A DNA stretch of 51,842 bases from Patescibacteria group bacterium (GCA_018818265.1 JAHISN010000078.1:1-51842); one strand, 5' to 3'; counted from the first letter of the stretch, positions 2,675 through 48,856 are shown. Made by a program: numbers and translations. The notes: generated by a model from the sequence alone, not told the origin.

Positions 2675-2782
2675 AAATGAAGCCGCGGGATTACTCGCCT
2701 CGTTTCGATCGAGCTCGCCTCGCTTCGCGGGTCGAAGCGGGTCTAGACGGGCGGACGGGGCTCCGCCACGTGGCAAGATTTT

Positions 2783-2871
2783 AACTTTTTCCGCCAGAGG
2801 CGGACCAGCCTTTGGCTGGAACTCTCAACTTTTTCCGCCAGAGGCGGATCAGCCCTTGGCTGAAACTTGAA
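2783..2871 (+). repeat. Two tandem copies of a double-hairpin module (TCCGCC-AGA-GGCGGA + YCAGCC-YTT-GGCTGR)
   Basis: Copy 1 is 2783-2826 and copy 2 is 2827-2871. Hairpin 2 differs by a compensatory pair (CCAGCC/GGCTGG vs TCAGCC/GGCTGA). Copy 2 is identical over 45 nt to 19264-19308. Confidence 0.9.
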
Positions 2872-2873
2872 CC

Positions 2874-3350
2874 ATGCCTGATTTATCAGTTCACCTACTC
2901 ACAACCTATATCGCCAATCACAAGCTCAAGTTGGAGCCGTATTTAGTTTTAGTCGGGGCAATGTTCCCCGATATTCTTGGGCGGGTTTTTATTGTGCTCT
3001 GGCCGCAAAATTATGTGCTGAATTGGGTATCTGTACTTCTGCATTCGCCCATACTGGTTTTATTAGGTGTATATTTAGCAGTAATGCTCTTTAGAGAATC
3101 GGAGCGAAAAGTCTGCTTTCTCGCCCTTAGCATCGGCGCTTTGGGACATCTTTTATTAGATATGCTACAGCGGCATTATCGGCCCTCCTATTATTGGTTT
3201 TTTCCCTTTACTTTTAGAACTTTTGAAATCCCCCTATTCTGGTCCGATGAATTTGTCCTCACAATTCCTTTCTGGTTTCTTCTGACTGTGCTAATTTGGC
3301 GCAGAACGCACCGGCAAAGTTTAGTACGCCGTCCGACAAATTTTGATTAG
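2874..3350 (+). CDS. Membrane-bound metal-dependent hydrolase-like protein (YdjM/DUF457-like)
   Basis: Polytopic hydrophobic protein carrying FPDILGR, LLHSPIL and GHLLLDML motifs. Confidence 0.5.
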   Translation: MPDLSVHLLTTYIANHKLKLEPYLVLVGAMFPDILGRVFIVLWPQNYVLNWVSVLLHSPILVLLGVYLAVMLFRESERKVCFLALSIGALGHLLLDMLQRHYRPSYYWFFPFTFRTFEIPLFWSDEFVLTIPFWFLLTVLIWRRTHRQSLVRRPTNFD

Positions 3351-3361
3351 TTAGCAGATGT

Positions 3362-3512
3362 TTGTAGCGGCGGCGCTTCCACGCGATGCCGCATGGCGTC
3401 GTAGCGCCGCGCCACGTCTGACGTGGCCGCGCCAGAAAGGGCCGCCTTCTTCGGATGCTAGGCTTCAGCCAGAGGCTGATCCGCCTTTGGCGGAAAAGCC
3501 TAGCCGCTACAA
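3362..3512. repeat. GC-rich composite REP-like element bounded by TTGTAGCGGC / GCCGCTACAA
   Basis: Left part is GTAG plus the imperfect palindrome GCGGCGCTTCCACGCGATGC-C-GCATGGCGTCGTAGCGCCGC. Middle part is GCCACGT-CTG-ACGTGGC. Right 56 nt (3457-3512) are identical to 46074-46129. Confidence 0.85.
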
Positions 3513-3673
3513 GCTACGGGCAAGTATTAGCCCTTACAGCCCCGGAGGGAAGAACTAATTTCTGCTATAATGACGGAATGGAGGGGTCGCATAGATGGTC
3601 CACTCGCCACGTCGCATGGCGTGGTTGCGCTGTTTTTGTTTGTTGGAGTATCGTGCCCGCCTGTGTTCACTGA

Positions 3674-3763
3674 GGAGGGGTGCCGGAGTGGTTTAACGGG
3701 CTGCTCTCGAAAAGCATGCGCCTCGCAAGGGGCACGAGAGTTCAAATCTCTCCCCCTCCGCCA
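3674..3763 (+). tRNA. tRNA-Ser (anticodon CGA), CCA encoded
   Basis: Acceptor stem GGAGGGG/CCCCTCC, anticodon loop CTCGAAA, long variable arm, T-arm GAGAG-TTCAAAT-CTCTC, discriminator G plus CCA. The backbone resembles what I recall of E. coli tRNA-Ser(CGA) (from memory, no alignment run). Confidence 0.85.
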
Positions 3764-5304: not shown

Positions 5305-5327
5305 CAGCCCGCCGATTAGGCGGGCTG
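5305..5327 (+). repeat. GC hairpin related to the double-hairpin module
   Basis: CAGCCCGCC-GATTA-GGCGGGCTG, preceded by GGAT as in GGCGGATCAGCCC. No T-tract follows. Confidence 0.6.
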
Positions 5328-6927: not shown

Positions 6928-7032
6928 TTGTAGCGGTTGAAGAACACGATCCTTTCTAACGCGGCGCTGCGACGCCATGCGCTACGCAATGCTGCATAGC
7001 GTTGGCATCGCGTGGAAGCGCCGCCGCTACAA
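6928..7032. repeat. GC-rich composite REP-like element bounded by TTGTAGCGGT / GCCGCTACAA
   Basis: The right part is the reverse complement of the 3362-3415 palindrome and carries an extra 23-nt segment. A fragment of it recurs at 14307-14337. Confidence 0.8.
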
Positions 7033-15100: not shown

Positions 15101-15337
15101 ATGTCTCGAAAAAAAGTTACCGGAACAGTTACCTCCAACAAAATGCAAAAGACAGTTGTCGTTGAGGCTGAGCGGCTGGTTAAACACCCGCGTTATCACA
15201 AATACATACGACGGCGCAAGAAGTTCTATGCTCATTGTGAAAAGCTAATTGATATGGGAACCAAAGTAGTTATCGAAGAAACAAGACCATTATCGAAAAC
15301 AAAGAGGTGGAGGGTAATATGTGTAGTTAAAAAATAG
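15101..15337 (+). CDS. rpsQ: 30S ribosomal protein S17
   Basis: [28 protein letters not shown]. Confidence 0.95.
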
Positions 15338-15483
15338 AAGTTAAAAGTGAAAAGTTGCTGAAGTTTACCAGAGTTTAGAAGTTGTCTAATCCGTGGTTGC
15401 AAACACCCATTAAGCACCATGAGGGTTTCTTTGAATATAACATTTCTAACTTTTAACTTTTCATTTTTAACTTTTAACTTGAA
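15337..15483 (+). repeat. Long imperfect hairpin built of AAGTTAAAAGT words (rpsQ-rplN spacer)
   Basis: Left arm GAAGTTAAAAGTGAAAAGTTG. Right arm CTAACTTTTAACTTTTCATTTTTAACTTTTAACTTG, ending 2 nt before ATG 15484. Confidence 0.8.
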
Positions 15484-15852
15484 ATGATCCAAACTCATAG
15501 TCGATTAAATGTTACAGATAATAGCGGAGCCAGAGAGGTTATGTGCCTCTCCATTCCCGGGCACAGCAGAAAAGTTTATGCTGGTATTGGAGATATTATT
15601 TCAGCCGTAGTTAAATTGGCTTCTCCAAATGGGACTGTTTCCAAGGCCGAGATTGTAAGAGCTCTAATAGTACGAACAAGAAAAGAAAAACGTCGCACGG
15701 ACGGTTCTCATGTGCGTTTTGATGATAACGCAGTGGTGATTATTGACAAAAAGAGAAACCCCGTCGGGACACGCGTCTTTGGTCCAATTGCTCGAGAAAT
15801 CAAAAACCTAGGTTATGATAAGATTGCATCTTTGGCACCGGAAATCGTATGA
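15484..15852 (+). CDS. rplN: 50S ribosomal protein L14
   Basis: MIQTHSRLNVTDNSGAREVMC. Confidence 0.97.
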   Translation: MIQTHSRLNVTDNSGAREVMCLSIPGHSRKVYAGIGDIISAVVKLASPNGTVSKAEIVRALIVRTRKEKRRTDGSHVRFDDNAVVIIDKKRNPVGTRVFGPIAREIKNLGYDKIASLAPEIV

Positions 15853-15860
15853 TTTGCTTT

Positions 15861-15941
15861 CTAGCCTTTTAGCTTCGCTAGCTTATTAGGAATACCTAGT
15901 GAAGCTAGTAAGTTAATGAAGCTAATGAAGCTAATGAAGCT
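15861..15941 (+). repeat. AGCT-word hairpin (rplN-rplX spacer)
   Basis: Left arm CTAGCCTTTTAGCTTCGCTAGCTTATTAGG. Right arm CCTAGTGAAGCTAGTAAGTTAATGAAGCTAATGAAGCTAATGAAGCT, running into ATG 15942. Confidence 0.85.
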
Positions 15942-16265
15942 ATGACAACAAACAAACTCGGAATCAAAAAGGGCGATAAAGTTCAAGTTATTACCGGGAA
16001 CTACCGCGGCAAACAAGGAGTTGTAGAGCGCGCACTGCCGAAAGAGAGGAAGGTTGTTGTTTCGGGCATTAACATCGTTAAGAGACATATGAAACCGCGC
16101 GGACAGCAAAAACCCGGTGGCATTATTGAAATAACCAAGCCCATTGATGTATCCAAGGTTATGTTCGTTTGTCCGAGTTGCAGCCAAAAAACACGAATCG
16201 GATACGACGCGAAAGGAAAAGAAAAGCATCGTATTTGCAAGAAATGCGGCAAGACAATTAGCTAA
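15942..16265 (+). CDS. rplX: 50S ribosomal protein L24 (with C-terminal CxxC...CxxC)
   Basis: KKGDKVQVITGNYRGKQGVV (KOW) and CPSC...CKKC. Confidence 0.93.
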   Translation: MTTNKLGIKKGDKVQVITGNYRGKQGVVERALPKERKVVVSGINIVKRHMKPRGQQKPGGIIEITKPIDVSKVMFVCPSCSQKTRIGYDAKGKEKHRICKKCGKTIS

Positions 16266-16355
16266 TTAGCTTATAGCTTGATTAGCTTTTTAGATGTACC
16301 CATCAGTCTAACTAAACTAATAAGCTAATGAAGCTAGTAAGCTAACGAAGCTAAC
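16262..16355 (+). repeat. AGCT-word hairpin (rplX-rplE spacer)
   Basis: Left arm CTAATTAGCTTATAGCTTGATTAGCTTTTTAG. Right arm ACTAATAAGCTAATGAAGCTAGTAAGCTAACGAAGCTAAC. Confidence 0.85.
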
Positions 16356-16358
16356 AAA

Positions 16359-17513: not shown

Positions 17514-17648
17514 AAGAAGTTAAAAGTCAAAAGTCGTAGTTCAAAATTGAAAACTACCACAGGGTTTTCTAGTCCTGGGTTATTCTTACTAATTTTGAAT
17601 TTTGCATTTCAACTTTGCACTTTGCATTTTTAACTTTGAATTTGAAAT
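17514..17648 (+). repeat. Long imperfect hairpin of AAGTTAAAAGT / TTGAATTTTGCA words (rpsH-rplF spacer)
   Basis: Left arm 17514-17557 includes the GTAG-headed hairpin GTAGTT-10 nt-AACTAC at 17536-17557. Right arm 17589-17648 ends at ATG 17649. Confidence 0.8.
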
Positions 17649-18200
17649 ATGTCTAAAATAGGAAAACAACCCATCACTATACCAAAGAACGTCGAAGTCT
17701 TAATTGATGGCCAAAGTGTTGTTATTAAAGGCACTAAGGGAGAGTTAGCCTATACATTACCGGAACTTGTAAACGCAGGGATTGAGGATAGTGAATTACG
17801 GGTTAATCGTGTAAATGATCTACCCACAGCCAAGGCGCTTCACGGAACCTGGCGGGCGCATTTGCAAAATGCAGTTATTGGTGTTGATAAAGGTTATGAA
17901 AAAATATTGGAGCTGGTGGGCTTGGGCTATCGAGCAGAATTAAAGGAGGGCAAATTGGTTTTACTGGTTGGGTTTTCCCATTCGGTAGAAGTTAAAATTC
18001 CCGAGGGCATTAAAGCATCTGTAGTCAAAAACAAGATATCCGTTGAAGGAATTGATAAACATCAAGTCGGCCAGATAGCCGCAATCATTCGCCGAGTCCG
18101 CCCACCGGAACCATATAAAGGCACCGGAATTCGCTATGCGGACGAAGTAATTCGACTTAAGCCCGGTAAGTCAGCCAGGGCGGTAGGAGCGGGAACATAA
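17649..18200 (+). CDS. rplF: 50S ribosomal protein L6
   Basis: MSKIGKQPITIPKNVEV...PEPYKGTGIRY. Confidence 0.96.
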   Translation: MSKIGKQPITIPKNVEVLIDGQSVVIKGTKGELAYTLPELVNAGIEDSELRVNRVNDLPTAKALHGTWRAHLQNAVIGVDKGYEKILELVGLGYRAELKEGKLVLLVGFSHSVEVKIPEGIKASVVKNKISVEGIDKHQVGQIAAIIRRVRPPEPYKGTGIRYADEVIRLKPGKSARAVGAGT

Positions 18201-19211: not shown

Positions 19212-19263
19212 AGGTAATTAGGTCCAGCTGAACTGGACCGGTAATTTTCAACTTTTAATTTTT
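19212..19263 (+). repeat. GGTAATT-flanked 7-bp hairpin plus AACTTTTAA words (rpsE-rplO spacer)
   Basis: GGTAATTA [GGTCCAG-CTGAA-CTGGACC, 19221-19239] GGTAATTT, then TTCAACTTTTAATTTTTAAC. Confidence 0.75.
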
Positions 19264-19308
19264 AACTTTTTCCGCCAGAGGCGGATCAGCCCTTGGCTGA
19301 AACTTGAA
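19264..19308 (+). repeat. 45-nt double-hairpin module identical to 2827-2871
   Basis: AACTTTTTCCGCCAGAGGCGGATCAGCCCTTGGCTGAAACTTGAA, ending 2 nt before the rplO ATG. Confidence 0.9.
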
Positions 19309-19310
19309 AC

Positions 19311-19760
19311 ATGCGCCTACATAATTTACCAAAAATCACCCAACGGAAAAAGAAACTTCTTGGGCGTGGGCCGGGAAGCGGCAAAGGAAAAACATCCGGA
19401 CGAGGCATGAAAGGGCAAAAAGCCCGATATAAAGTCCGTCCCGGCTTTGAAGGCCGCCAGCCCAGATTGACCAAGCGATTACCTAAACTAAGAGGGAAAG
19501 GGAGATTGTTGCCGCACAAGCCCAAACCAAAGACAATTGATATTGCGCGCCTCAACATATTCCGCGCCGGTTCACGGGTAACACCGGAAATACTGGTAGA
19601 AAAAGGCCTAGTTAAAAAAATCCCCCCTGCCGGCATTAAAATACTTGCCAAGGGCAAACTTGAAAAAAAACTAACCTTGGAAGGCTTTAAGATCTCTAAG
19701 GGCGCGAGAGAGCAGGTGGAAGAGTTGGGAGGGAAAATAAAGGAAATCTCAAGCGACTAA
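19311..19760 (+). CDS. rplO: 50S ribosomal protein L15
   Basis: MRLHNLPKI...GRGPGSGKGKTSGRGMKGQKAR. Confidence 0.95.
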   Translation: MRLHNLPKITQRKKKLLGRGPGSGKGKTSGRGMKGQKARYKVRPGFEGRQPRLTKRLPKLRGKGRLLPHKPKPKTIDIARLNIFRAGSRVTPEILVEKGLVKKIPPAGIKILAKGKLEKKLTLEGFKISKGAREQVEELGGKIKEISSD

Positions 19761-34277: not shown

Positions 34278-34520
34278 TTACAATCCAATTAACTTCAATA
34301 ACTCTTCCATCCTTCCCTGACTAAGGCCGACACAATAGACATAAAGGCTAAAGATAGCGGTTAACCAAAAAAGGGTAAAATGGGGGAGCCATTTTCGAAA
34401 CCATTGCCGAAACCATTGCCGAAACCATTGCCGAAACCATTGCCGAAACCATTGCCGAAACCATTGCCGAAACCATTGCCGAAACCATTGCTCCCGCAAT
34501 TTGGGTTTAACTGATTCCAT
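34278..34520 (-). CDS. Small membrane-anchored protein with a (QWFR)8 repeat
   Basis: MESVKPKLRE-(QWFR)x8-KWLPHFTLFWLTAIFSLYVYCVGL. Lies 72 nt upstream of, and co-oriented with, the GT-C-like gene. Confidence 0.5.
   Translation of the reverse strand: MESVKPKLREQWFRQWFRQWFRQWFRQWFRQWFRQWFRQWFRKWLPHFTLFWLTAIFSLYVYCVGLSQGRMEELLKLIGL
34396..34491. repeat. Perfect tandem repeat, 12 nt x 8 (CGAAACCATTGC)
   Basis: Eight identical units counted directly. They are in frame within ORF 34278-34520. Confidence 0.95.
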
Positions 34521-40759: not shown

Positions 40760-40846
40760 TAGCTTTTTAGCTTTTAGATTCATTAGCTTGTTAGATTAAG
40801 AAAAAAAACTAAGAAGCTAGTGAAGCTAACGAAGCTATCAGCTAAT
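40760..40846 (+). repeat. AGCT-word hairpin (rpmJ-rpsM spacer)
   Basis: Left arm TAGCTTTTTAGCTTTTAGATTCATTAGCTTGTTAG. Right arm CTAAGAAGCTAGTGAAGCTAACGAAGCTATCAGCTAA. Confidence 0.85.
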
Positions 40847-40851
40847 AAATT

Positions 40852-41254: not shown

Positions 41255-41356
41255 TTTATAGCTTATAGCTGCATTAGCTTATTAGGTCAGAAACAGAAAA
41301 CCAAGAGACTAATCAGCTAGTGAAGCTAACGCAGCTAGCGAAGCTAGCTGGCTAAT
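41255..41356 (+). repeat. AGCT-word hairpin (rpsM-rpsK spacer)
   Basis: Left arm TTTATAGCTTATAGCTGCATTAGCTTATTAGG. Right arm CTAATCAGCTAGTGAAGCTAACGCAGCTAGCGAAGCTAGCTGGCTAA. The 17-mer AGCTAGTGAAGCTAACG is shared with 40815-40831. Confidence 0.85.
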
Positions 41357-41361
41357 TCAAA

Positions 41362-41763: not shown

Positions 41764-41869
41764 CAGCTTCGCTAGCTTATAGCTTCGTTAGCTTGTTACG
41801 CATAAGAGGAAAACTAACAAGCTAGTGAGACTGATAAAGCTAATGAAGCTAACGAACCTAGCAAGCTAA
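41764..41869 (+). repeat. AGCT-word hairpin (rpsK-rpsD spacer)
   Basis: Left arm CAGCTTCGCTAGCTTATAGCTTCGTTAGCTTGTTA. Right arm CTAACAAGCTAGTGAGACTGATAAAGCTAATGAAGCTAACGAACCTAGCAAGCTAA. Confidence 0.85.
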
Positions 41870-41874
41870 TTATT

Positions 41875-45012: not shown

Positions 45013-45897
45013 TTACACACCCGCTACTAATTTCCAAAGCTGGGTTTCCAAATCCTGCCCACCCATTTTTGTCGATAAATCAATCTCCAACAAATGAGAA
45101 TAAATCTCTTTTAATATAGCCACTTCCCAGCGCGGAGACTGTTTTATAAGTTTAGCAGTTACAAATGGGTGTAGCCCTTTAAGACCATCTTTGTATTTAG
45201 ACAGAAGAAGCAAACGAAACTGGCGCACCAGCATATGAAAGATATAACTCGCTTCCTGACCTTCAGTCAATAGCTTTTTCAAACAACTTGCGGCATATTT
45301 TCTGTCGCGCCCACTTAAGGCATCAGTAAACTCAAAAATATTCTCCTCTACACTTTTAGCGCTAAGAGCGGCCACATCCTGAATCGTAATTTTGCGTTCC
45401 GCTGTATAGGCAGTGAGCTTATTTAGCTCGTTTGTGAGCCGCCACAAATCACTACCATGATATTCAATAAGCTTCTCGATAGCCGCACCATCAATTTTGT
45501 CTGCACCTATATAGCCTAAAAGCCACCGCCGTAGCGCTGGCTTCCTTAGCGGCGCAAACTCAAAAACTTGTGCTTCTTTCCTAAGCCACTTGGTAAATTT
45601 GAACCGCTTGTCAATTTCCCCTGATTGATAGATGATAACCACTTGCGAAGCGACTGCTTTTTCTAAAGCCTCTTGCAGGTCACTAAAAAAATCAGGATCG
45701 CGCGAAAAGTCCAAAACATCACGCAAGATAAGAACTGAGCTGTTCCCAAAAAGAGAAGTCTGATTAACCGACAAGGAACTAATATCAAAACTTTGTGCCG
45801 TACCATCAATAACCCTTAGGGACTTTTTATCCGGCGCAAGTTCGTCAATTTTTTTTCGCGCCCGGTAAGTATCAGGCCCGCAGATTAGATGAAGCAT
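45013..45897 (-). CDS. holA: DNA polymerase III delta subunit
   Basis: N-terminus MLHLICGPDTYRARKKIDEL, size, helical C-terminal domain. The motif match is weaker than for other calls. Confidence 0.6.
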   Translation of the reverse strand: MLHLICGPDTYRARKKIDELAPDKKSLRVIDGTAQSFDISSLSVNQTSLFGNSSVLILRDVLDFSRDPDFFSDLQEALEKAVASQVVIIYQSGEIDKRFKFTKWLRKEAQVFEFAPLRKPALRRWLLGYIGADKIDGAAIEKLIEYHGSDLWRLTNELNKLTAYTAERKITIQDVAALSAKSVEENIFEFTDALSGRDRKYAASCLKKLLTEGQEASYIFHMLVRQFRLLLLSKYKDGLKGLHPFVTAKLIKQSPRWEVAILKEIYSHLLEIDLSTKMGGQDLETQLWKLVAGV

Positions 45898-46021
45898 AAT
45901 GTTTTAATATCCGAAACTCGAATATCGAAATTCTAAACAGTAAGCAGTGGGATTGCGATGCTATATAGTAACCGCAAAACAAACTTACCACATTTTTAAT
46001 TAACATCCAGTCTATGGGTGC

Positions 46022-46129
46022 TTGTAGCGGCGGGTCTTTAGACCCGCGTCAGGAGAGATTACGTCCTTCTGTCGCTAGGCTTCAGCCAGAGGCTGATCCG
46101 CCTTTGGCGGAAAAGCCTAGCCGCTACAA
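46022..46129. repeat. Composite REP-like element bounded by TTGTAGCGGC / GCCGCTACAA
   Basis: Left part is GTAG plus GCGGGTC-TTTA-GACCCGC. The right 56 nt are identical to 3457-3512. The outer flanks CAAAACAAACTTAC (about 45972) and CATGTAAATTTGTTTTG (46139-46155) are also inverted. Confidence 0.85.
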
Positions 46130-46162
46130 CAAGAAACCATGTAAATTTGTTTTGAATCTTGG

Positions 46163-47263
46163 TTATTTGTGCTTCGAATTTGTCTTCCTTAAATCTATCA
46201 TATTTGCCTCCTTTAAAATCTCCGGCTGGGTGACTGCCGTTATCAGAGTTTGCTGTTTAGTAAACGAAGGCAAAAGCGCTTCTCTGGCTTTGTTATCCAG
46301 CTCCGAAAAAATATCATCACACACAAAAACTGGTCGTTGACCAAGTTTTTCCTCCATCAGATCCAACTGGCCAGTTTTTAGGCGCACCACTGCCAGGCGC
46401 TGCTGCCCTCGCGATCCAAAGAAAGATAAATCTTCCACAGAGCCGTTAGCAATAATGGGGCCAAGAATTTTCACCTCATCTCTCTGGGGACCAATAAGCG
46501 TAAAGCCCATTTCTCTTTCTCTTTCTTGAGTCTGTTTAAGTTTATTTCTAATCAACTCCTGAACCTGAGATTCTTCCCATCCTGATTCTAATTCACGACG
46601 AATAACCCGCGGACTGGGGTAATAATCTAATTTGAGTTTCCATTGACTCAACCGACAATTTAGTTCTTGCACCAATCGGTAGCGCTGTACAATGATCATG
46701 CCCCCAAAACTAACCAGTTTTTGATTCCAAAAAGCCATTTGCTCATCCATATCACGAGCCTGAGAAAGAAGTTTATTGCGCTGGTGTAAAACATGTCGAT
46801 ACTGTCCGACTATTTCCTCATACTCACTAGAAAGACCAACAAGAATATCATCAAGAAAGGCTCTTCTTAGAGCAGGGGAATCGGTAATGATGTCTAAATG
46901 ACGCGGAGAAAAAATAACCGCCTGAAAACGAGAAAAAAAATCCCGCGGCAAACAACTCTTCCCATTAAACAACAACTTCCTTCCGGAAGACTCCAAAGAA
47001 ACTGCCAGTTTAAATTTTGTTAAATCACCAGTAGAAATGACCCCCTCGGATACGGATTGCTTCTGTCCTTGTTTAATAAGATATTTTAACTTGGCTGAGC
47101 GGAAAGACTTTCCTACGGCCAGCAAACCAATAGCTTCCAGAAGATTGCTTTTCCCTGCGCCATTTGGCCCAACAATTATATTTAACCCCGAACTGAACTC
47201 GACGGCAAATTTCTCAAAATTGCGAAAGTTATGGAGACGAAAACTAGAAATATACACGGCCAT
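46163..47263 (-). CDS. recF: DNA replication and repair protein RecF
   Basis: FRLHNFRNFEKFAVEFSSGLNIIVGPNGAGKSNLLEAI and the C-terminal signature region. Confidence 0.9.
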   Translation of the reverse strand: MAVYISSFRLHNFRNFEKFAVEFSSGLNIIVGPNGAGKSNLLEAIGLLAVGKSFRSAKLKYLIKQGQKQSVSEGVISTGDLTKFKLAVSLESSGRKLLFNGKSCLPRDFFSRFQAVIFSPRHLDIITDSPALRRAFLDDILVGLSSEYEEIVGQYRHVLHQRNKLLSQARDMDEQMAFWNQKLVSFGGMIIVQRYRLVQELNCRLSQWKLKLDYYPSPRVIRRELESGWEESQVQELIRNKLKQTQEREREMGFTLIGPQRDEVKILGPIIANGSVEDLSFFGSRGQQRLAVVRLKTGQLDLMEEKLGQRPVFVCDDIFSELDNKAREALLPSFTKQQTLITAVTQPEILKEANMIDLRKTNSKHK

Positions 47264-47301
47264 CCTATTTTAACAGAGGGTGGCTGGTTAAGACAATTCA
47301 A

Positions 47302-47375
47302 TAATCCACAGGGCTGTGCCGCGCACTTATCCACAAACTTACGCCTTGACAATTATCCACAATGATTAATATAGT
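47302..47375 (+). promoter_or_regulatory. Three DnaA boxes overlapping the dnaA promoter
   Basis: TAATCCACA 47302-47310, TTATCCACA 47327-47335, TTATCCACA 47353-47361. TTGACA (47346-47351), 18-nt spacer, TATAGT (47370-47375), ending 9 nt before ATG 47385. Confidence 0.75.
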
Positions 47376-47384
47376 GTAGCAATA

Positions 47385-48785
47385 ATGAGCCAGTCATCTC
47401 CCAGCTCCTTTCCAAAATCTCCGCAAGAAACCAAGCAAATCTGGCAAAGTGTTCTAGGCCAAATCGAATTGAAACATTCGGCATCAATTGTTAATACATG
47501 GTTCAACAATACCCATTTGGAAAGTATCAACAAAAGCTCCGCAGTTATTTCCTGTCAATCACCATATACTCAAGATGTACTTCAAAAACGCTACAATAAA
47601 ACAATTGTTGAGTGTCTGGAAAAATCAACTCAGAAAAAGCTAGATTTAGAGTTTATTATTCAAAAAACTAAAGAAGGCCCGGATTCTGGCCCCTTATTTG
47701 ATCAGACTCCAGAAGAAGCAACCATTGGCGATAATTTCAAAACCCACGAAGAACACCAACACAATGTTAATCCGCGGTTTACCTTTGAAAATTTTGTCGT
47801 TGGTAATTGCAACCGCGTCGCCCACGCCGCCGCCTTAGCTGTTACCTCCGACCCGGGCACTGCTTACAATCCCTTATTCATTCACGGTGGATCAGGAATG
47901 GGAAAGTCCCATCTGTTGCACGCCATTGGCAACCATCTCCTTCAAAACCCAAAATGTGACCATCTATTGTGCTTCCCTGTAGAAACATTTATTAACGATT
48001 TTATAGACTCAATCCGCTATAAAAAAACTAAAGAATTTAAAAAGAAATACCGCCAATCCGACGGCCTGCTTATTGATGACATTCAGTTCATTGGCGGCAA
48101 CAAGATTTCCACTCAAGAAGAATTTTTTCATACTTTTAACGAACTCTATAGCGGCAATCGACAAATCATTATTTGTTCCGATCGGCCACCGGAAGAAATT
48201 GATCAATTAACTAAAAGACTTGTGACACGTTTTGCCGGGGGACTAATGGTAGAAATTAGCCCTCCCGACTTTGAAACCCGCCTGGCAATCATCCAAACCA
48301 AAGCCGCCGTGCTAGGAATGGATTTTAATACGGAAAGCGCCGAATTCGTAGCCCAATGCACCGAATCTAGTATACGAGAAATTGAGGGGATTCTTTTAAA
48401 AATTCGCAGCGAAACACTAGTCCGTGAACTCACTCCTACTTTGGGAGTTATTAAAAGCATCTTGATTGACAACAATTCAACAAAGAAAAATAAACAGACA
48501 ATGACTCCTGAATTAATTTTTAGATTAGTTAACGAGAGATTCGGCACCACCATGTCACAGCTGTGCGGACGGCGTCGCAAATCCGAAATTGTTATCCCGC
48601 GACAAATCGCCATGTATTTACTTCGCAACGACTTGGGTCTAAACCTGGAACATATCGGAGACCTGCTAGGAGGAAGAGACCATACCACAGTAATGCACGG
48701 CACCGACAAAATCAGTAGTTTATTAAAAAAGAAGAAACCTCTTATCTGCGAGGCAGTAAGATATATAAGACAGGAGATTTATTAG
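47385..48785 (+). CDS. dnaA: Chromosomal replication initiator protein DnaA
   Basis: FENFVVGNCNRVAHAAA, GGSGMGKSHLLHAIGN, LIDDIQF, C-terminal HTH GGRDHTTVMHG. Confidence 0.96.
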   Translation: MSQSSPSSFPKSPQETKQIWQSVLGQIELKHSASIVNTWFNNTHLESINKSSAVISCQSPYTQDVLQKRYNKTIVECLEKSTQKKLDLEFIIQKTKEGPDSGPLFDQTPEEATIGDNFKTHEEHQHNVNPRFTFENFVVGNCNRVAHAAALAVTSDPGTAYNPLFIHGGSGMGKSHLLHAIGNHLLQNPKCDHLLCFPVETFINDFIDSIRYKKTKEFKKKYRQSDGLLIDDIQFIGGNKISTQEEFFHTFNELYSGNRQIIICSDRPPEEIDQLTKRLVTRFAGGLMVEISPPDFETRLAIIQTKAAVLGMDFNTESAEFVAQCTESSIREIEGILLKIRSETLVRELTPTLGVIKSILIDNNSTKKNKQTMTPELIFRLVNERFGTTMSQLCGRRRKSEIVIPRQIAMYLLRNDLGLNLEHIGDLLGGRDHTTVMHGTDKISSLLKKKKPLICEAVRYIRQEIY

Positions 48786-48856
48786 CTTCATTAGCTTCAC
48801 TAGCTTCATTAGCTTCACTAGCTTCATTAGCTTCATTAGCTTTTTAGCTTGTTAGA
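48784..48856 (+). repeat. Tandem 9-mers AGCTTCAYT (about 6 to 8 units), left-arm-only AGCT-word element after dnaA
   Basis: AGCTTCATT AGCTTCACT AGCTTCATT AGCTTCACT AGCTTCATT AGCTTCATT AGCTTTTT AGCTTGTT. No complementary arm lies nearby. Confidence 0.85.

Follow-up and report, generated by a model that had tools for sequence, protein, structure and literature searches.

A 30-nt double-hairpin repeat resembling miniature mobile DNA, found before two start codons of a Patescibacteria genome and in many bacterial phyla

The small dispersed repeats (SDR) of heterocystous cyanobacteria, reported by Elhai et al. in 2008, are said to be dispersed and apparently mobile units of 21-27 nt, some of which form hairpins and are nested; we know of no transposase for them. 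Rickettsia palindromic elements (RPE), of ~100-150 nt and found in Rickettsia only, insert in frame in genes and have no known nuclease partner. REP, BIME and REPIN sequences are short GC-rich palindromes, often inversely paired and non-autonomous, that are thought to move as single-stranded hairpins (PMC3116915, PMC2817692, PMC3733652). The double-hairpin elements (DHE) and GC clusters of fungal and other mitochondria are GC-rich mini-elements of two hairpins, dispersed in AT-rich genomes, that occupy intergenic sequence, variable parts of RNA genes and coding regions by a mechanism that is unknown (PMC4478555, PMC2800124, PMC7218506). Free-standing GIY-YIG homing endonucleases, such as SegB of phage T4, are encoded by small genes beside the tRNA genes that they target, and these homing genes spread by cleavage and repair (PMC2330249, PMC13096335). 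Among the genes predicted to have been transferred from subsurface Patescibacteria to other bacteria is one for a GIY-YIG domain protein (PMC12455944).

The DNA analysed here, called the window, is a stretch of 51,842 nt from a Patescibacteria group bacterium (GCA_018818265.1, JAHISN010000078.1:1-51842). A preliminary description had reported in it a 45-mer, AACTTTTTCCGCCAGAGGCGGATCAGCCCTTGGCTGAAACTTGAA, at 2827-2871 and again at 19264-19308, each copy followed by 2 nt and then an ATG. This was borne out: the two copies have 0 mismatches, where chance would give no match, and the dinucleotides are CC at the former and AC at the latter. The ORF that starts at the first of these ATGs (2874-3350) encodes a YdjM-like membrane protein (PF04307), for which an exact-protein look-up returned no record, and the other (19311-19760) is rplO, encoding L15 (PF00828). 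As had been stated, neither ATG has a Shine-Dalgarno sequence, there being no GGAGG-like motif in the 20 nt upstream; most genes of the window likewise have none before their start. Also confirmed were a tandem third copy at 2783-2826, in which hairpin 2 is CCAGCC/GGCTGG rather than TCAGCC/GGCTGA and its loop TTT rather than CTT, and reverse-complement relatives within 3457-3512 and 46074-46129 (34 nt, 91% complementary). At 5305-5327 the hairpin described, CAGCCCGCC-GATTA-GGCGGGCTG, is real, but its assignment to the family is not upheld by the covariance model (E=1.2). Exact-protein look-ups for closer strains gave only two unitig-type contigs of the same organism and sample (SRR6514274, Logan), one ending and the other beginning inside the 45-mer, as expected of a repeat, and no strain with an empty rplO or ydjM-like site.

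A covariance model was built from 58 copies in other genomes. Run over the whole window, it gave exactly five matches, with E-values of 6e-16 to 4e-15, three of them forward and two reversed (Table 1), and no sixth below E=1; the count of five for the source organism refers to these 51,842 nt. The repeated unit is 30 nt only, and what is left of the 45-mer, 15 nt, belongs to the host leader. Copy A, the element of the tandem third copy, has C-G where the others have T-A to close hairpin 2 and is placed one leader heptamer-pair upstream of copy B. Copies B and C each lie 10 nt upstream of an ATG, those of the ydjM-like gene and rplO, respectively. For the reversed copies D and E the next gene is 181-665 nt away. 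Copy D occupies the loop of a host hairpin, GCTAGGCT/AGCCTAGC, with a CTAC-tagged REP-like unit at its end (3457-3512); copy E, between recF and holA, has the same hairpin around it (46074-46129). The two regions are alike over 86 nt at 85% (repeat family D8), and copies D and E have clearly propagated together with their host hairpin. The window also holds other REP-like palindromes with GTAG/CTAC tags. GC skew was considered as a guide to replication-strand bias and set aside, as skew in the window tracks gene orientation.

Table 1. Copies of the 30-nt element in the window, and the heptamer-repeat leaders with and without it
Feature	Coordinates	Strand	Basis or remark
Copy A, 30-nt element	2790..2819	+	59 bits, E 6e-16
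Copy B, 30-nt element, TCCGCC-AGA-GGCGGA / TCAGCC-CTT-GGCTGA	2834..2863	+	57 bits, E 4e-15
Copy C, 30-nt element, same sequence as copy B	19271..19300	+	covariance model
Copy D, 30-nt element, reversed	3465..3494	-	covariance model
Copy E, 30-nt element, reversed, identical to copy D	46082..46111	-	covariance model
rplO leader, AATTTTC AACTTTT AATTTTT AACTTTT ^ AACTTGAAAC	19243..19310	+	copy C at TTTT^AACT
ydjM-like leader, ..TTTTAACTTTT ^ AACTCTCAACTTTT ^ AACTTGAACC	2776..2873	+	broken twice, by copies A and B
rplN leader, uninterrupted, ..TTTTTAACTTTTAACTTGAA ATG	15448..15483 (match 15466-15486)	+	paralogous empty site
rplF leader, uninterrupted, slightly diverged, TTTTTAACTTTGAATTTGAAAT ATG	17611..17648 (match 17629-17651)	+	family D3 and upstream sequences

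The element has the form T-CCGCC-NNN-GGCGG-A / Y-CAGCC-NNN-GGCTG-R, that is, two abutting 15-nt hairpins, each of a 6-bp stem and a 3-nt loop (consensus YCCGCC-NNA-GGCGGR and YCAGCC-TNN-GGCTGR; NNA prevails in loop 1 and TNN in loop 2). Its halves are near reverse complements of one another and the whole is nearly self-reverse-complementary, with the exception of a conserved C/A difference that disfavours one long hairpin. Other genomes were searched with the pattern CCGCCNNNGGCGGNNCAGCCNNNGGCTG, in which the stems are fixed and the loops and linker free. Since the core stems were set by this pattern, their invariance in the 132 copies listed is ascertainment and no evidence of conservation. 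The closing pairs were left free by the pattern, and they covary: at hairpin 1 the pair is T-A in 121 and C-G in 7 of the 132 listed copies, with four non-pairs, and at hairpin 2 the figures are 89, 37 and six. Because these pairs next to the core covary, the unit is taken as two abutting hairpins of 30 nt in total. Copies found by the model only show compensatory changes in the stems themselves (TGTGCC/GGCACA, TGCGCC/GGCGCA and TGAGCC/GGCTCA). The loops of some copies hold nested insertions, among them one of 30 nt at locus L064. The loop CTT in hairpin 2 is rare, being found in two of the 132 listed copies, both in the window. The flank consensus of the listed copies is T-Y-T ... R-N-R, which is symmetric. 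An outer stem, P1, was tried as part of the motif and rejected: positions -2/+2 do not covary, there is therefore no intrinsic outer stem, and outer pairing, in those copies that have it, comes from the host hairpins. A U-tract was sought after the hairpins on both strands and is absent. T-runs precede hairpin 1 and R-N-R or A-rich sequence comes after hairpin 2, so that on either strand the element departs from the form of an intrinsic terminator.

The pattern matches at least 118 loci in a collection with one genome per GTDB species, against ~1 match expected by chance for 20 fixed bases and 1.2e12 positions at uniform base composition. By record title, the hosts include numerous Patescibacteria as well as Omnitrophota, Ignavibacteria, Planctomycetota, Verrucomicrobiota, Lentisphaerota, Elusimicrobia, Bacteroidota, Leptospira, Bdellovibrionales, Thermodesulfobacteriota, Binatia and Gammaproteobacteria, these phylum labels being those of the MAG records; some of the contigs that bear the element are 200-650 kb long. 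Low-scoring matches in very GC-rich genomes (L004, L019, L081 and L087; 24-29 bits) are probably due to chance. The flanks of the element are unrelated between loci. In the JGI metagenome collection, from which the window's own genome is absent, 12 contigs contain the exact 28-mer of the window, rare CTT loop included, and are otherwise unlike the window throughout. A sequencing-adapter artefact was considered and rejected, the element being present in many independent assemblies, including long-read and single-cell ones, and at orthologous sites with diverged loops. BLAST searches with the element found no match among PLSDB plasmids and INPHARED phages. In Rfam, the ribosomal-protein leaders included, the window had no match at the gathering threshold, and by E-value the best matches (0.6-8) were to unrelated families only; the position of the element relative to genes is also variable. 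A full-text literature search on the sequence, the peptides described below and related element types found no description of it, and it looks like an apparently unreported family of miniature mobile DNA.

Insertion is seen where filled and empty sites can be compared. A number of copies break into the D-, T- or anticodon loop of a tRNA-like sequence, with an intact paralogue 70-300 nt away in the same locus. At four such loci (L029, L098, L086 and L041) the filled tRNA paralogue has exactly 30 nt more than the empty one and no target duplication; the junctions are gattc^gaacc at L029 and gattt^gaacc at L098, and removal of the 30 nt at L041 gives back a tRNA-Ser according to ARAGORN. The possibility that the element is a tRNA intron was rejected: a tRNA is restored for ARAGORN in L041 only, the other interrupted sequences are degenerate fragments beside intact genes, and no sign of RNA-level splicing was seen in the interrupted tRNA-like sequences.

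Protein-coding genes provide a second set of sites. On a crude ORF map, 38 of the 132 listed copies lie within ORFs, and in real genes the element is in frame and appears as recurring decapeptides, SAxGGPAxGW and PPxADQPxAE or, reversed, QPxAGPPxAE. Its length of 30 nt and its near lack of stop codons allow it to survive there as a 10-residue loop. MiaA of locus L063 aligns over its full length to structure 2qgn with an 11-residue gap at the element, and GAPDH of L075 keeps its full length on either side of it. Of the 120 orthologues closest to the CCA-adding enzyme of L030, nine have the decapeptide at one site (..L-x-F^x-I-E-x-K-T), five have a degenerate decapeptide and 103 show a clean gap of 10 columns. 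Sequences nearest to the carriers, at 76-90% identity, are without the decapeptide. Behind the distribution at this site is either a hot spot (TTTT^GAAA) where the element was gained repeatedly or its precise loss, and the element turns over either way. Over all copies the target consensus is (T)TY^RA(A), quasi-palindromic and without target-site duplication. Flank-to-flank pairing of -8 kcal/mol or below is found for 14.7% of copies against 6.3% with permuted flanks, and mean flank pairing is ~5 SD below the permuted control; given this enrichment, a subset of copies sits in the loops of host hairpins, of which copies D and E are examples.

The register that drew attention to the 45-mer can be traced to the sequence around the element. 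The 15 nt outside it (AAC/TTTT before the element, AACTTGAA after it) are part of an AT-rich heptamer-repeat leader (family D3) of the form TTTTTAACTTTT^AACTTGAA(N0-2)ATG. Before rplO the order is TTTTTAACTTTT, 30 nt, AACTTGAAAC, ATG, and before the ydjM-like gene it is ..AACTTTT, 30 nt, AACTCTCAACTTTT, 30 nt, AACTTGAACC, ATG. The rplN leader reads TTTTTAACTTTT AACTTGAA ATG and the rplF leader has the variant TTTTTAACTTTGAATTTGAAATATG, both without the element; the empty sites compared are such paralogous leaders together with distant relatives (L15 identity <=69%). The three occupied TTTT^AACT junctions, 2789/2790, 2833/2834 and 19270/19271, fit the target preference of the family. Between the end of the leader and the ATG there is a fixed few bases, so the element owes its register to the leader. 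We conclude, with a probability of roughly 0.85, that the module is a mobile miniature insertion whose register to the ATG comes from the leader in which it lies. The preliminary description had offered a strongly site-specific insertion next to start codons as one of two options; the inserted, mobile-type element and a short target preference stand, and start codons as the target do not.

The ORFs of the element-bearing loci (3435) were clustered, and one recurrent non-housekeeping family emerged, a protein of ~80 aa with a GIY-YIG domain (PF01541; E 4e-13 to 4e-18). It is present in 18 loci, with 13 of the genes no more than 50 nt from an element. The other large clusters, read by eye, look like housekeeping families (CCA enzyme, HU, Fpg, RuvB, ABC ATPase and others), with the single exception of an IS copy family of one genome. 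A reciprocal test was blind to the element: six homologues, 71-85% identical and from different Patescibacteria classes, were fetched by protein identity, and the model matched at all six and in nine of the ten loci (E 2e-13 to 5e-8). In nine of the ten loci the element ends 10-60 nt upstream of the GIY-YIG ATG, and in nine a tRNA-Ser (TGA, GCT or CGA) starts 3-12 nt after the GIY-YIG stop, while L162, the tenth, reaches just 34 nt beyond the stop codon, too little to show one. Upstream there is an 8-21-nt copy of the 5' end of the same tRNA-Ser, and the element lies inside this copy at GGCT^GAGTGG or nearby. The cassette thus runs from the tRNA-Ser 5' fragment with the element through the GIY-YIG gene to the tRNA-Ser, and the orientation of the element in it varies. 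Loci L155 and L156, which encode the same protein, differ by a 50-nt block that includes the element. The closest solved proteins by sequence are UPF0213 members 1zg2 and 1ywl, of unknown function.

In the window, hmmsearch found no nuclease or transposase gene. There is, in the same stretch, a tRNA-Ser at 3674-3763, and upstream of it a 5' fragment resembling tRNA-Ser. TCN^GA, the site cut by the GIY-YIG restriction enzyme Hpy188I, is similar to the TY^NR junctions of the element and offers a lead. The association of nuclease and element is strong but correlative, and mobilisation by the nuclease is what we infer from it; the association could also stem from a preference, shared by element and cassette, for tRNA-like D-arm sequences. 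That the GIY-YIG nuclease is the mobilising enzyme is a possibility to which we give somewhat less than even odds. Cassette elements, too, sit shortly upstream of an ATG, and may have a role in expression there.

The other option of the preliminary description was a function in the 5' UTR, in translation initiation or in mRNA stability or processing. Spelled out, this would be an RNA element that acts in cis, as a Shine-Dalgarno substitute or on the stability or processing of the rplO and ydjM-like mRNAs, and whose position is selected relative to the start codon. Two identical copies in identical register to the ATG suggest as much, as do the double hairpin in the predicted fold of the rplO leader (z = -4.0), the covariation of the closing pairs and the placement of cassette elements before the GIY-YIG ATG. 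When copies elsewhere are mapped against starts, however, the 156 listed have a median distance of ~100 nt with no peak and occur in both orientations; between co-directional flanking genes, 27 of the listed copies have the same orientation as the genes and 28 the opposite one. Distance and orientation of the other copies being random in this way, the fixed register and orientation that had been reported do not hold at the level of the family. Copies also lie between convergent and divergent genes, in frame within ORFs and in tRNA-like loops, and two of the five in the window are reversed and far from starts. The same leader, free of the element, serves rplN and rplF, a spacer of 2-34 nt is enough for rplO to be expressed in relatives, and no Rfam family matches, all of which makes 5'-UTR function very improbable. 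The rplO copy had further been said to occupy the slot where rpmD lies in most bacteria. Patescibacteria generally lack L30. L15 directly follows S5 in the window, with no rpmD (L30) gene, and the relatives compared (CPR3-like Patescibacteria, L15 identity 58-69%) are also without rpmD and have rpsE-rplO spacers of 2-34 nt that lack the element, so the slot has no significance and the location of the element in it is a coincidence. A dedicated role in translation initiation or termination is not supported. The effect on expression of rplO and the ydjM-like gene is probably neutral or incidental, and a stable structure 10 nt upstream of the AUG may have such an incidental effect. A conserved site of benefit to the host, be it a terminator or attenuator, a nucleoid or gyrase binding site or an RNase processing site, would account for GC-rich hairpins in AT-rich spacers and for a structure kept through covariation. 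Such a site is hard to reconcile with the lack of a U-tract after either hairpin on either strand, with scattered presence at one site among close orthologues, with in-frame copies within enzymes and with near-identical sequence in distant phyla and unrelated contexts, and we give it hardly any credence.

Two further explanations bear on how the copies arose. The two 45-mers may be one insertion that was copied between similar leaders by gene conversion or segmental duplication, and they would then be uninformative on target choice. Their likeness reaches 58 nt at 93% (family D6), their shared rare CTT in loop 2 implies a very recent common ancestor of both copies, and D and E show that copies do spread along with a host hairpin. 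On the other hand, the leader family fully explains the flanks, which are equally similar before rplN where there is no element, three separate TTTT^AACT junctions are occupied, and unrelated genomes show the same TTY^RAA preference. Copying of this kind seems rather unlikely to us; it concerns the origin of the second copy only and is compatible with the mobile-element explanation. The element might also be a REP/BIME/REPIN or an IS200/IS605-derived, PATE-like repeat, moved as single-stranded DNA by a HUH Y1 transposase (RAYT or TnpA) and not by a GIY-YIG nuclease. Like REP it is a short GC-rich paired palindrome, and paired hairpins, the absence of target duplication, the preference for hairpin loops and nested insertions are typical of single-strand transposition; in the window, moreover, one kind of GTAG/CTAC-tagged REP-like palindrome houses two of the copies. 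But REP have a GTAG/CGTC tag and a Y1 transposase and are extragenic and species-specific or at least lineage-specific, while none of these was seen for the element in the loci analysed: it carries neither GTAG nor CGTC, is found across phyla and is also intragenic. PATE, which have subterminal hairpins and a TnpA(Y1) acting in trans, resemble it in hairpins and lack of duplication; their signal is one-sided, with insertion 3' of one specific tetra- or pentanucleotide, and that of the element is the symmetric (T)TY^RA(A) within TYT...RNR, with no guide tetranucleotide on one side. Among the ORFs of ~150 element-bearing loci no Y1-like family is recurrent, and no TnpA was seen there by ORF clustering; among the same 3435 ORFs GIY-YIG recurs in 18 loci. 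Movement by a HUH enzyme we consider improbable.

The mobile-insertion reading also has to be set against the remaining families. The decapeptides of the element behave like the in-frame insertions of RPE; with 30 nt, a cross-phylum distribution and a link to GIY-YIG, the element otherwise differs from these. It resembles SDR in being very small, dispersed, hairpin-forming and nested, whereas SDR have different sequences, belong to one lineage and have not been described with a double-hairpin anatomy or a nuclease cassette. DHE and GC clusters are organellar and unrelated in sequence, with no linked free-standing nuclease shown. As in MITEs, near-inverted-repeat halves are present, but filled and empty sites differ by exactly 30 nt with no duplication. 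Related loci, though not the window, recall a GIY-YIG homing cassette in that they abut tRNA-Ser and carry a duplicated 5' fragment of the tRNA, while the C-terminal DNA-binding domain of Seg and Tev enzymes (>=100 aa) has no counterpart in the proteins found here, which are a bare catalytic domain of ~80 aa. The element works like the miniature palindromic selfish repeats, yet it fails the defining features of each named family.

On the mobile-insertion reading the module would be a non-autonomous miniature mobile DNA element together with host leader sequence, and no regulatory device of either gene. Three landings at TTTT^AACT junctions of the heptamer-repeat leader would have given the two identical 45-mers in identical register. 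Movement would pass through a single-stranded or cruciform intermediate in which both hairpins form, and would be driven in trans, the best candidate being the small (~80 aa) stand-alone UPF0213-like GIY-YIG nuclease. A more tentative proposal is that these elements form a new class, driven by a bare ~80-residue GIY-YIG nuclease that has the hairpin pair as its dispersed satellite or its recognition module. The nuclease would be resident upstream of tRNA-Ser genes, and the hairpin pair would be cut-and-pasted or copied into TTY^RAA of single-stranded or cruciform DNA. To our knowledge no homing endonuclease disperses a 30-nt satellite.

For the window, these results remove a tempting false lead, as the element is neither a Shine-Dalgarno substitute nor a replacement of rpmD. 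For bacterial genomes more widely, a 30-nt sequence, near-identical across many phyla whose members are mostly uncultivated, puts loops of 10 residues into essential enzymes, interrupts tRNA-like sequences and breaks assemblies. The covariance model can flag it in MAG annotation, where it leads to spurious N-terminal extensions, split tRNAs and contig breaks, and its scattered insertions are potential strain markers. How tiny palindromic elements move is a question shared with REP-like repeats that have no RAYTs, cyanobacterial SDR and mitochondrial GC clusters, and the coupling of GIY-YIG and tRNA-Ser provides a concrete, testable candidate. If the new class is real, the element, in its spread across phyla, would be smaller than any transposable unit known from bacteria, and its movement would represent a GIY-YIG-based transposition or homing chemistry that is new for bacteria.

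The tRNA-Ser-like 5' fragment and the tRNA-Ser(CGA) gene in the window (Table) resemble in layout a GIY-YIG/tRNA-Ser cassette minus its nuclease gene. The cassette has a conserved order, in which the tRNA-Ser 5' fragment with the double hairpin is followed by an ORF for the GIY-YIG nuclease-domain protein (~80 aa) and then by tRNA-Ser. Many Patescibacteria carry it, as do members of some other phyla, and its GIY-YIG proteins share 70-85% identity between classes. Some loci carry it in tandem arrays (L086 and L094, loci fetched from other genomes), and the partner is not always tRNA-Ser, being tRNA-Val at L010 and tRNA-Gly at L085.

Certain copies of the double-hairpin element hold a further insertion within one of their own 3-nt loops; at the three loci listed, these nested insertions derive from other hairpin families. 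In a Moanabacter MAG (L023, L038, L107 and L113), one double-hairpin copy keeps a constant place next to a transposase-like ORF of ~600 aa that is present in multiple copies. This double-hairpin copy recurs identically together with that insertion sequence and so seems to be hitch-hiking on a different mobile element.

The window also contains several families of GC-rich, REP-like palindromes with GTAG/CTAC ends (TTGTAGCGGCGG..., TGTAGTAGC...), which are a second repeat system in the same genome, unrelated to the double-hairpin element. One hairpin of the GTAG/CTAC type hosts nested double-hairpin elements (n = 2). A different tandem repeat, of 12 nt in ~9 copies, encodes the (QWFR)n stretch of a small ORF.

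Features discussed, by location (positions in L-numbered loci are local to each locus)
Feature	Source	Positions	Details
tRNA-Ser-like 5' fragment	window	3579-3600	GGAGGGGTCGCATAGATGGTC; ~75 nt upstream of tRNA-Ser(CGA)
tRNA-Ser(CGA)	window	3674-3763	
GIY-YIG/tRNA-Ser cassette	L153-L162, L013, L042, L072, L076, L094	e.g. L158 1443-1836	L153-L162 chosen blind to the double hairpin
Nested insertion in double-hairpin copy	L064	3052-3119	30 nt
Nested insertions in double-hairpin copies	L062; L027	6822-6887; 5774-5831	~25-28 nt
GTAG/CTAC palindromes	window	3362-3390 with 7004-7032; 46024-46129	
GTAG/CTAC palindromes	window	7387, 26632, 27594, 48870	
GTAG/CTAC palindromes	window	7043, 7436, 26654, 27563	
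Small ORF	window	34278-34520	- strand; contains repeat 34389-34496
rpsQ-rplN spacer	window	15336-15487	AAAAGTT repeats left, AACTTTT repeats right
rpsH-rplF spacer	window	17514-17652	AAAAGTT repeats left, AACTTTT repeats right
9-nt repeats	window	15863-15942, 16267-16358, 40768-40850, 41259-41360, 41773-41874, 48766-48851	TAGCTTNNT / AAGCTAATG
9-nt-repeat spacers	L134 (relative)	771-873, 1196-1290	
Grouped holA, recF and dnaA genes	window	45013-48851	

The region in which holA, recF and dnaA are grouped is a likely replication origin region; the cumulative GC skew reaches its minimum near 48-49 kb, adjoining a 9-mer array. This tandem array lies directly after dnaA and uses the same 9-mer as the hairpin-like spacers between ribosomal protein genes.

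Upon folding, the spacer repeats before rplN and rplF are predicted to form a single long AT-rich stem (z -2.3 to -2.8) ending ~14 nt upstream of the AUG. Such a stem might serve in processing or translational coupling, within an operon that lacks Shine-Dalgarno sites. Spacers of the 9-nt-repeat type are also present in a relative at 69% L15 identity, and are therefore a feature of the lineage.
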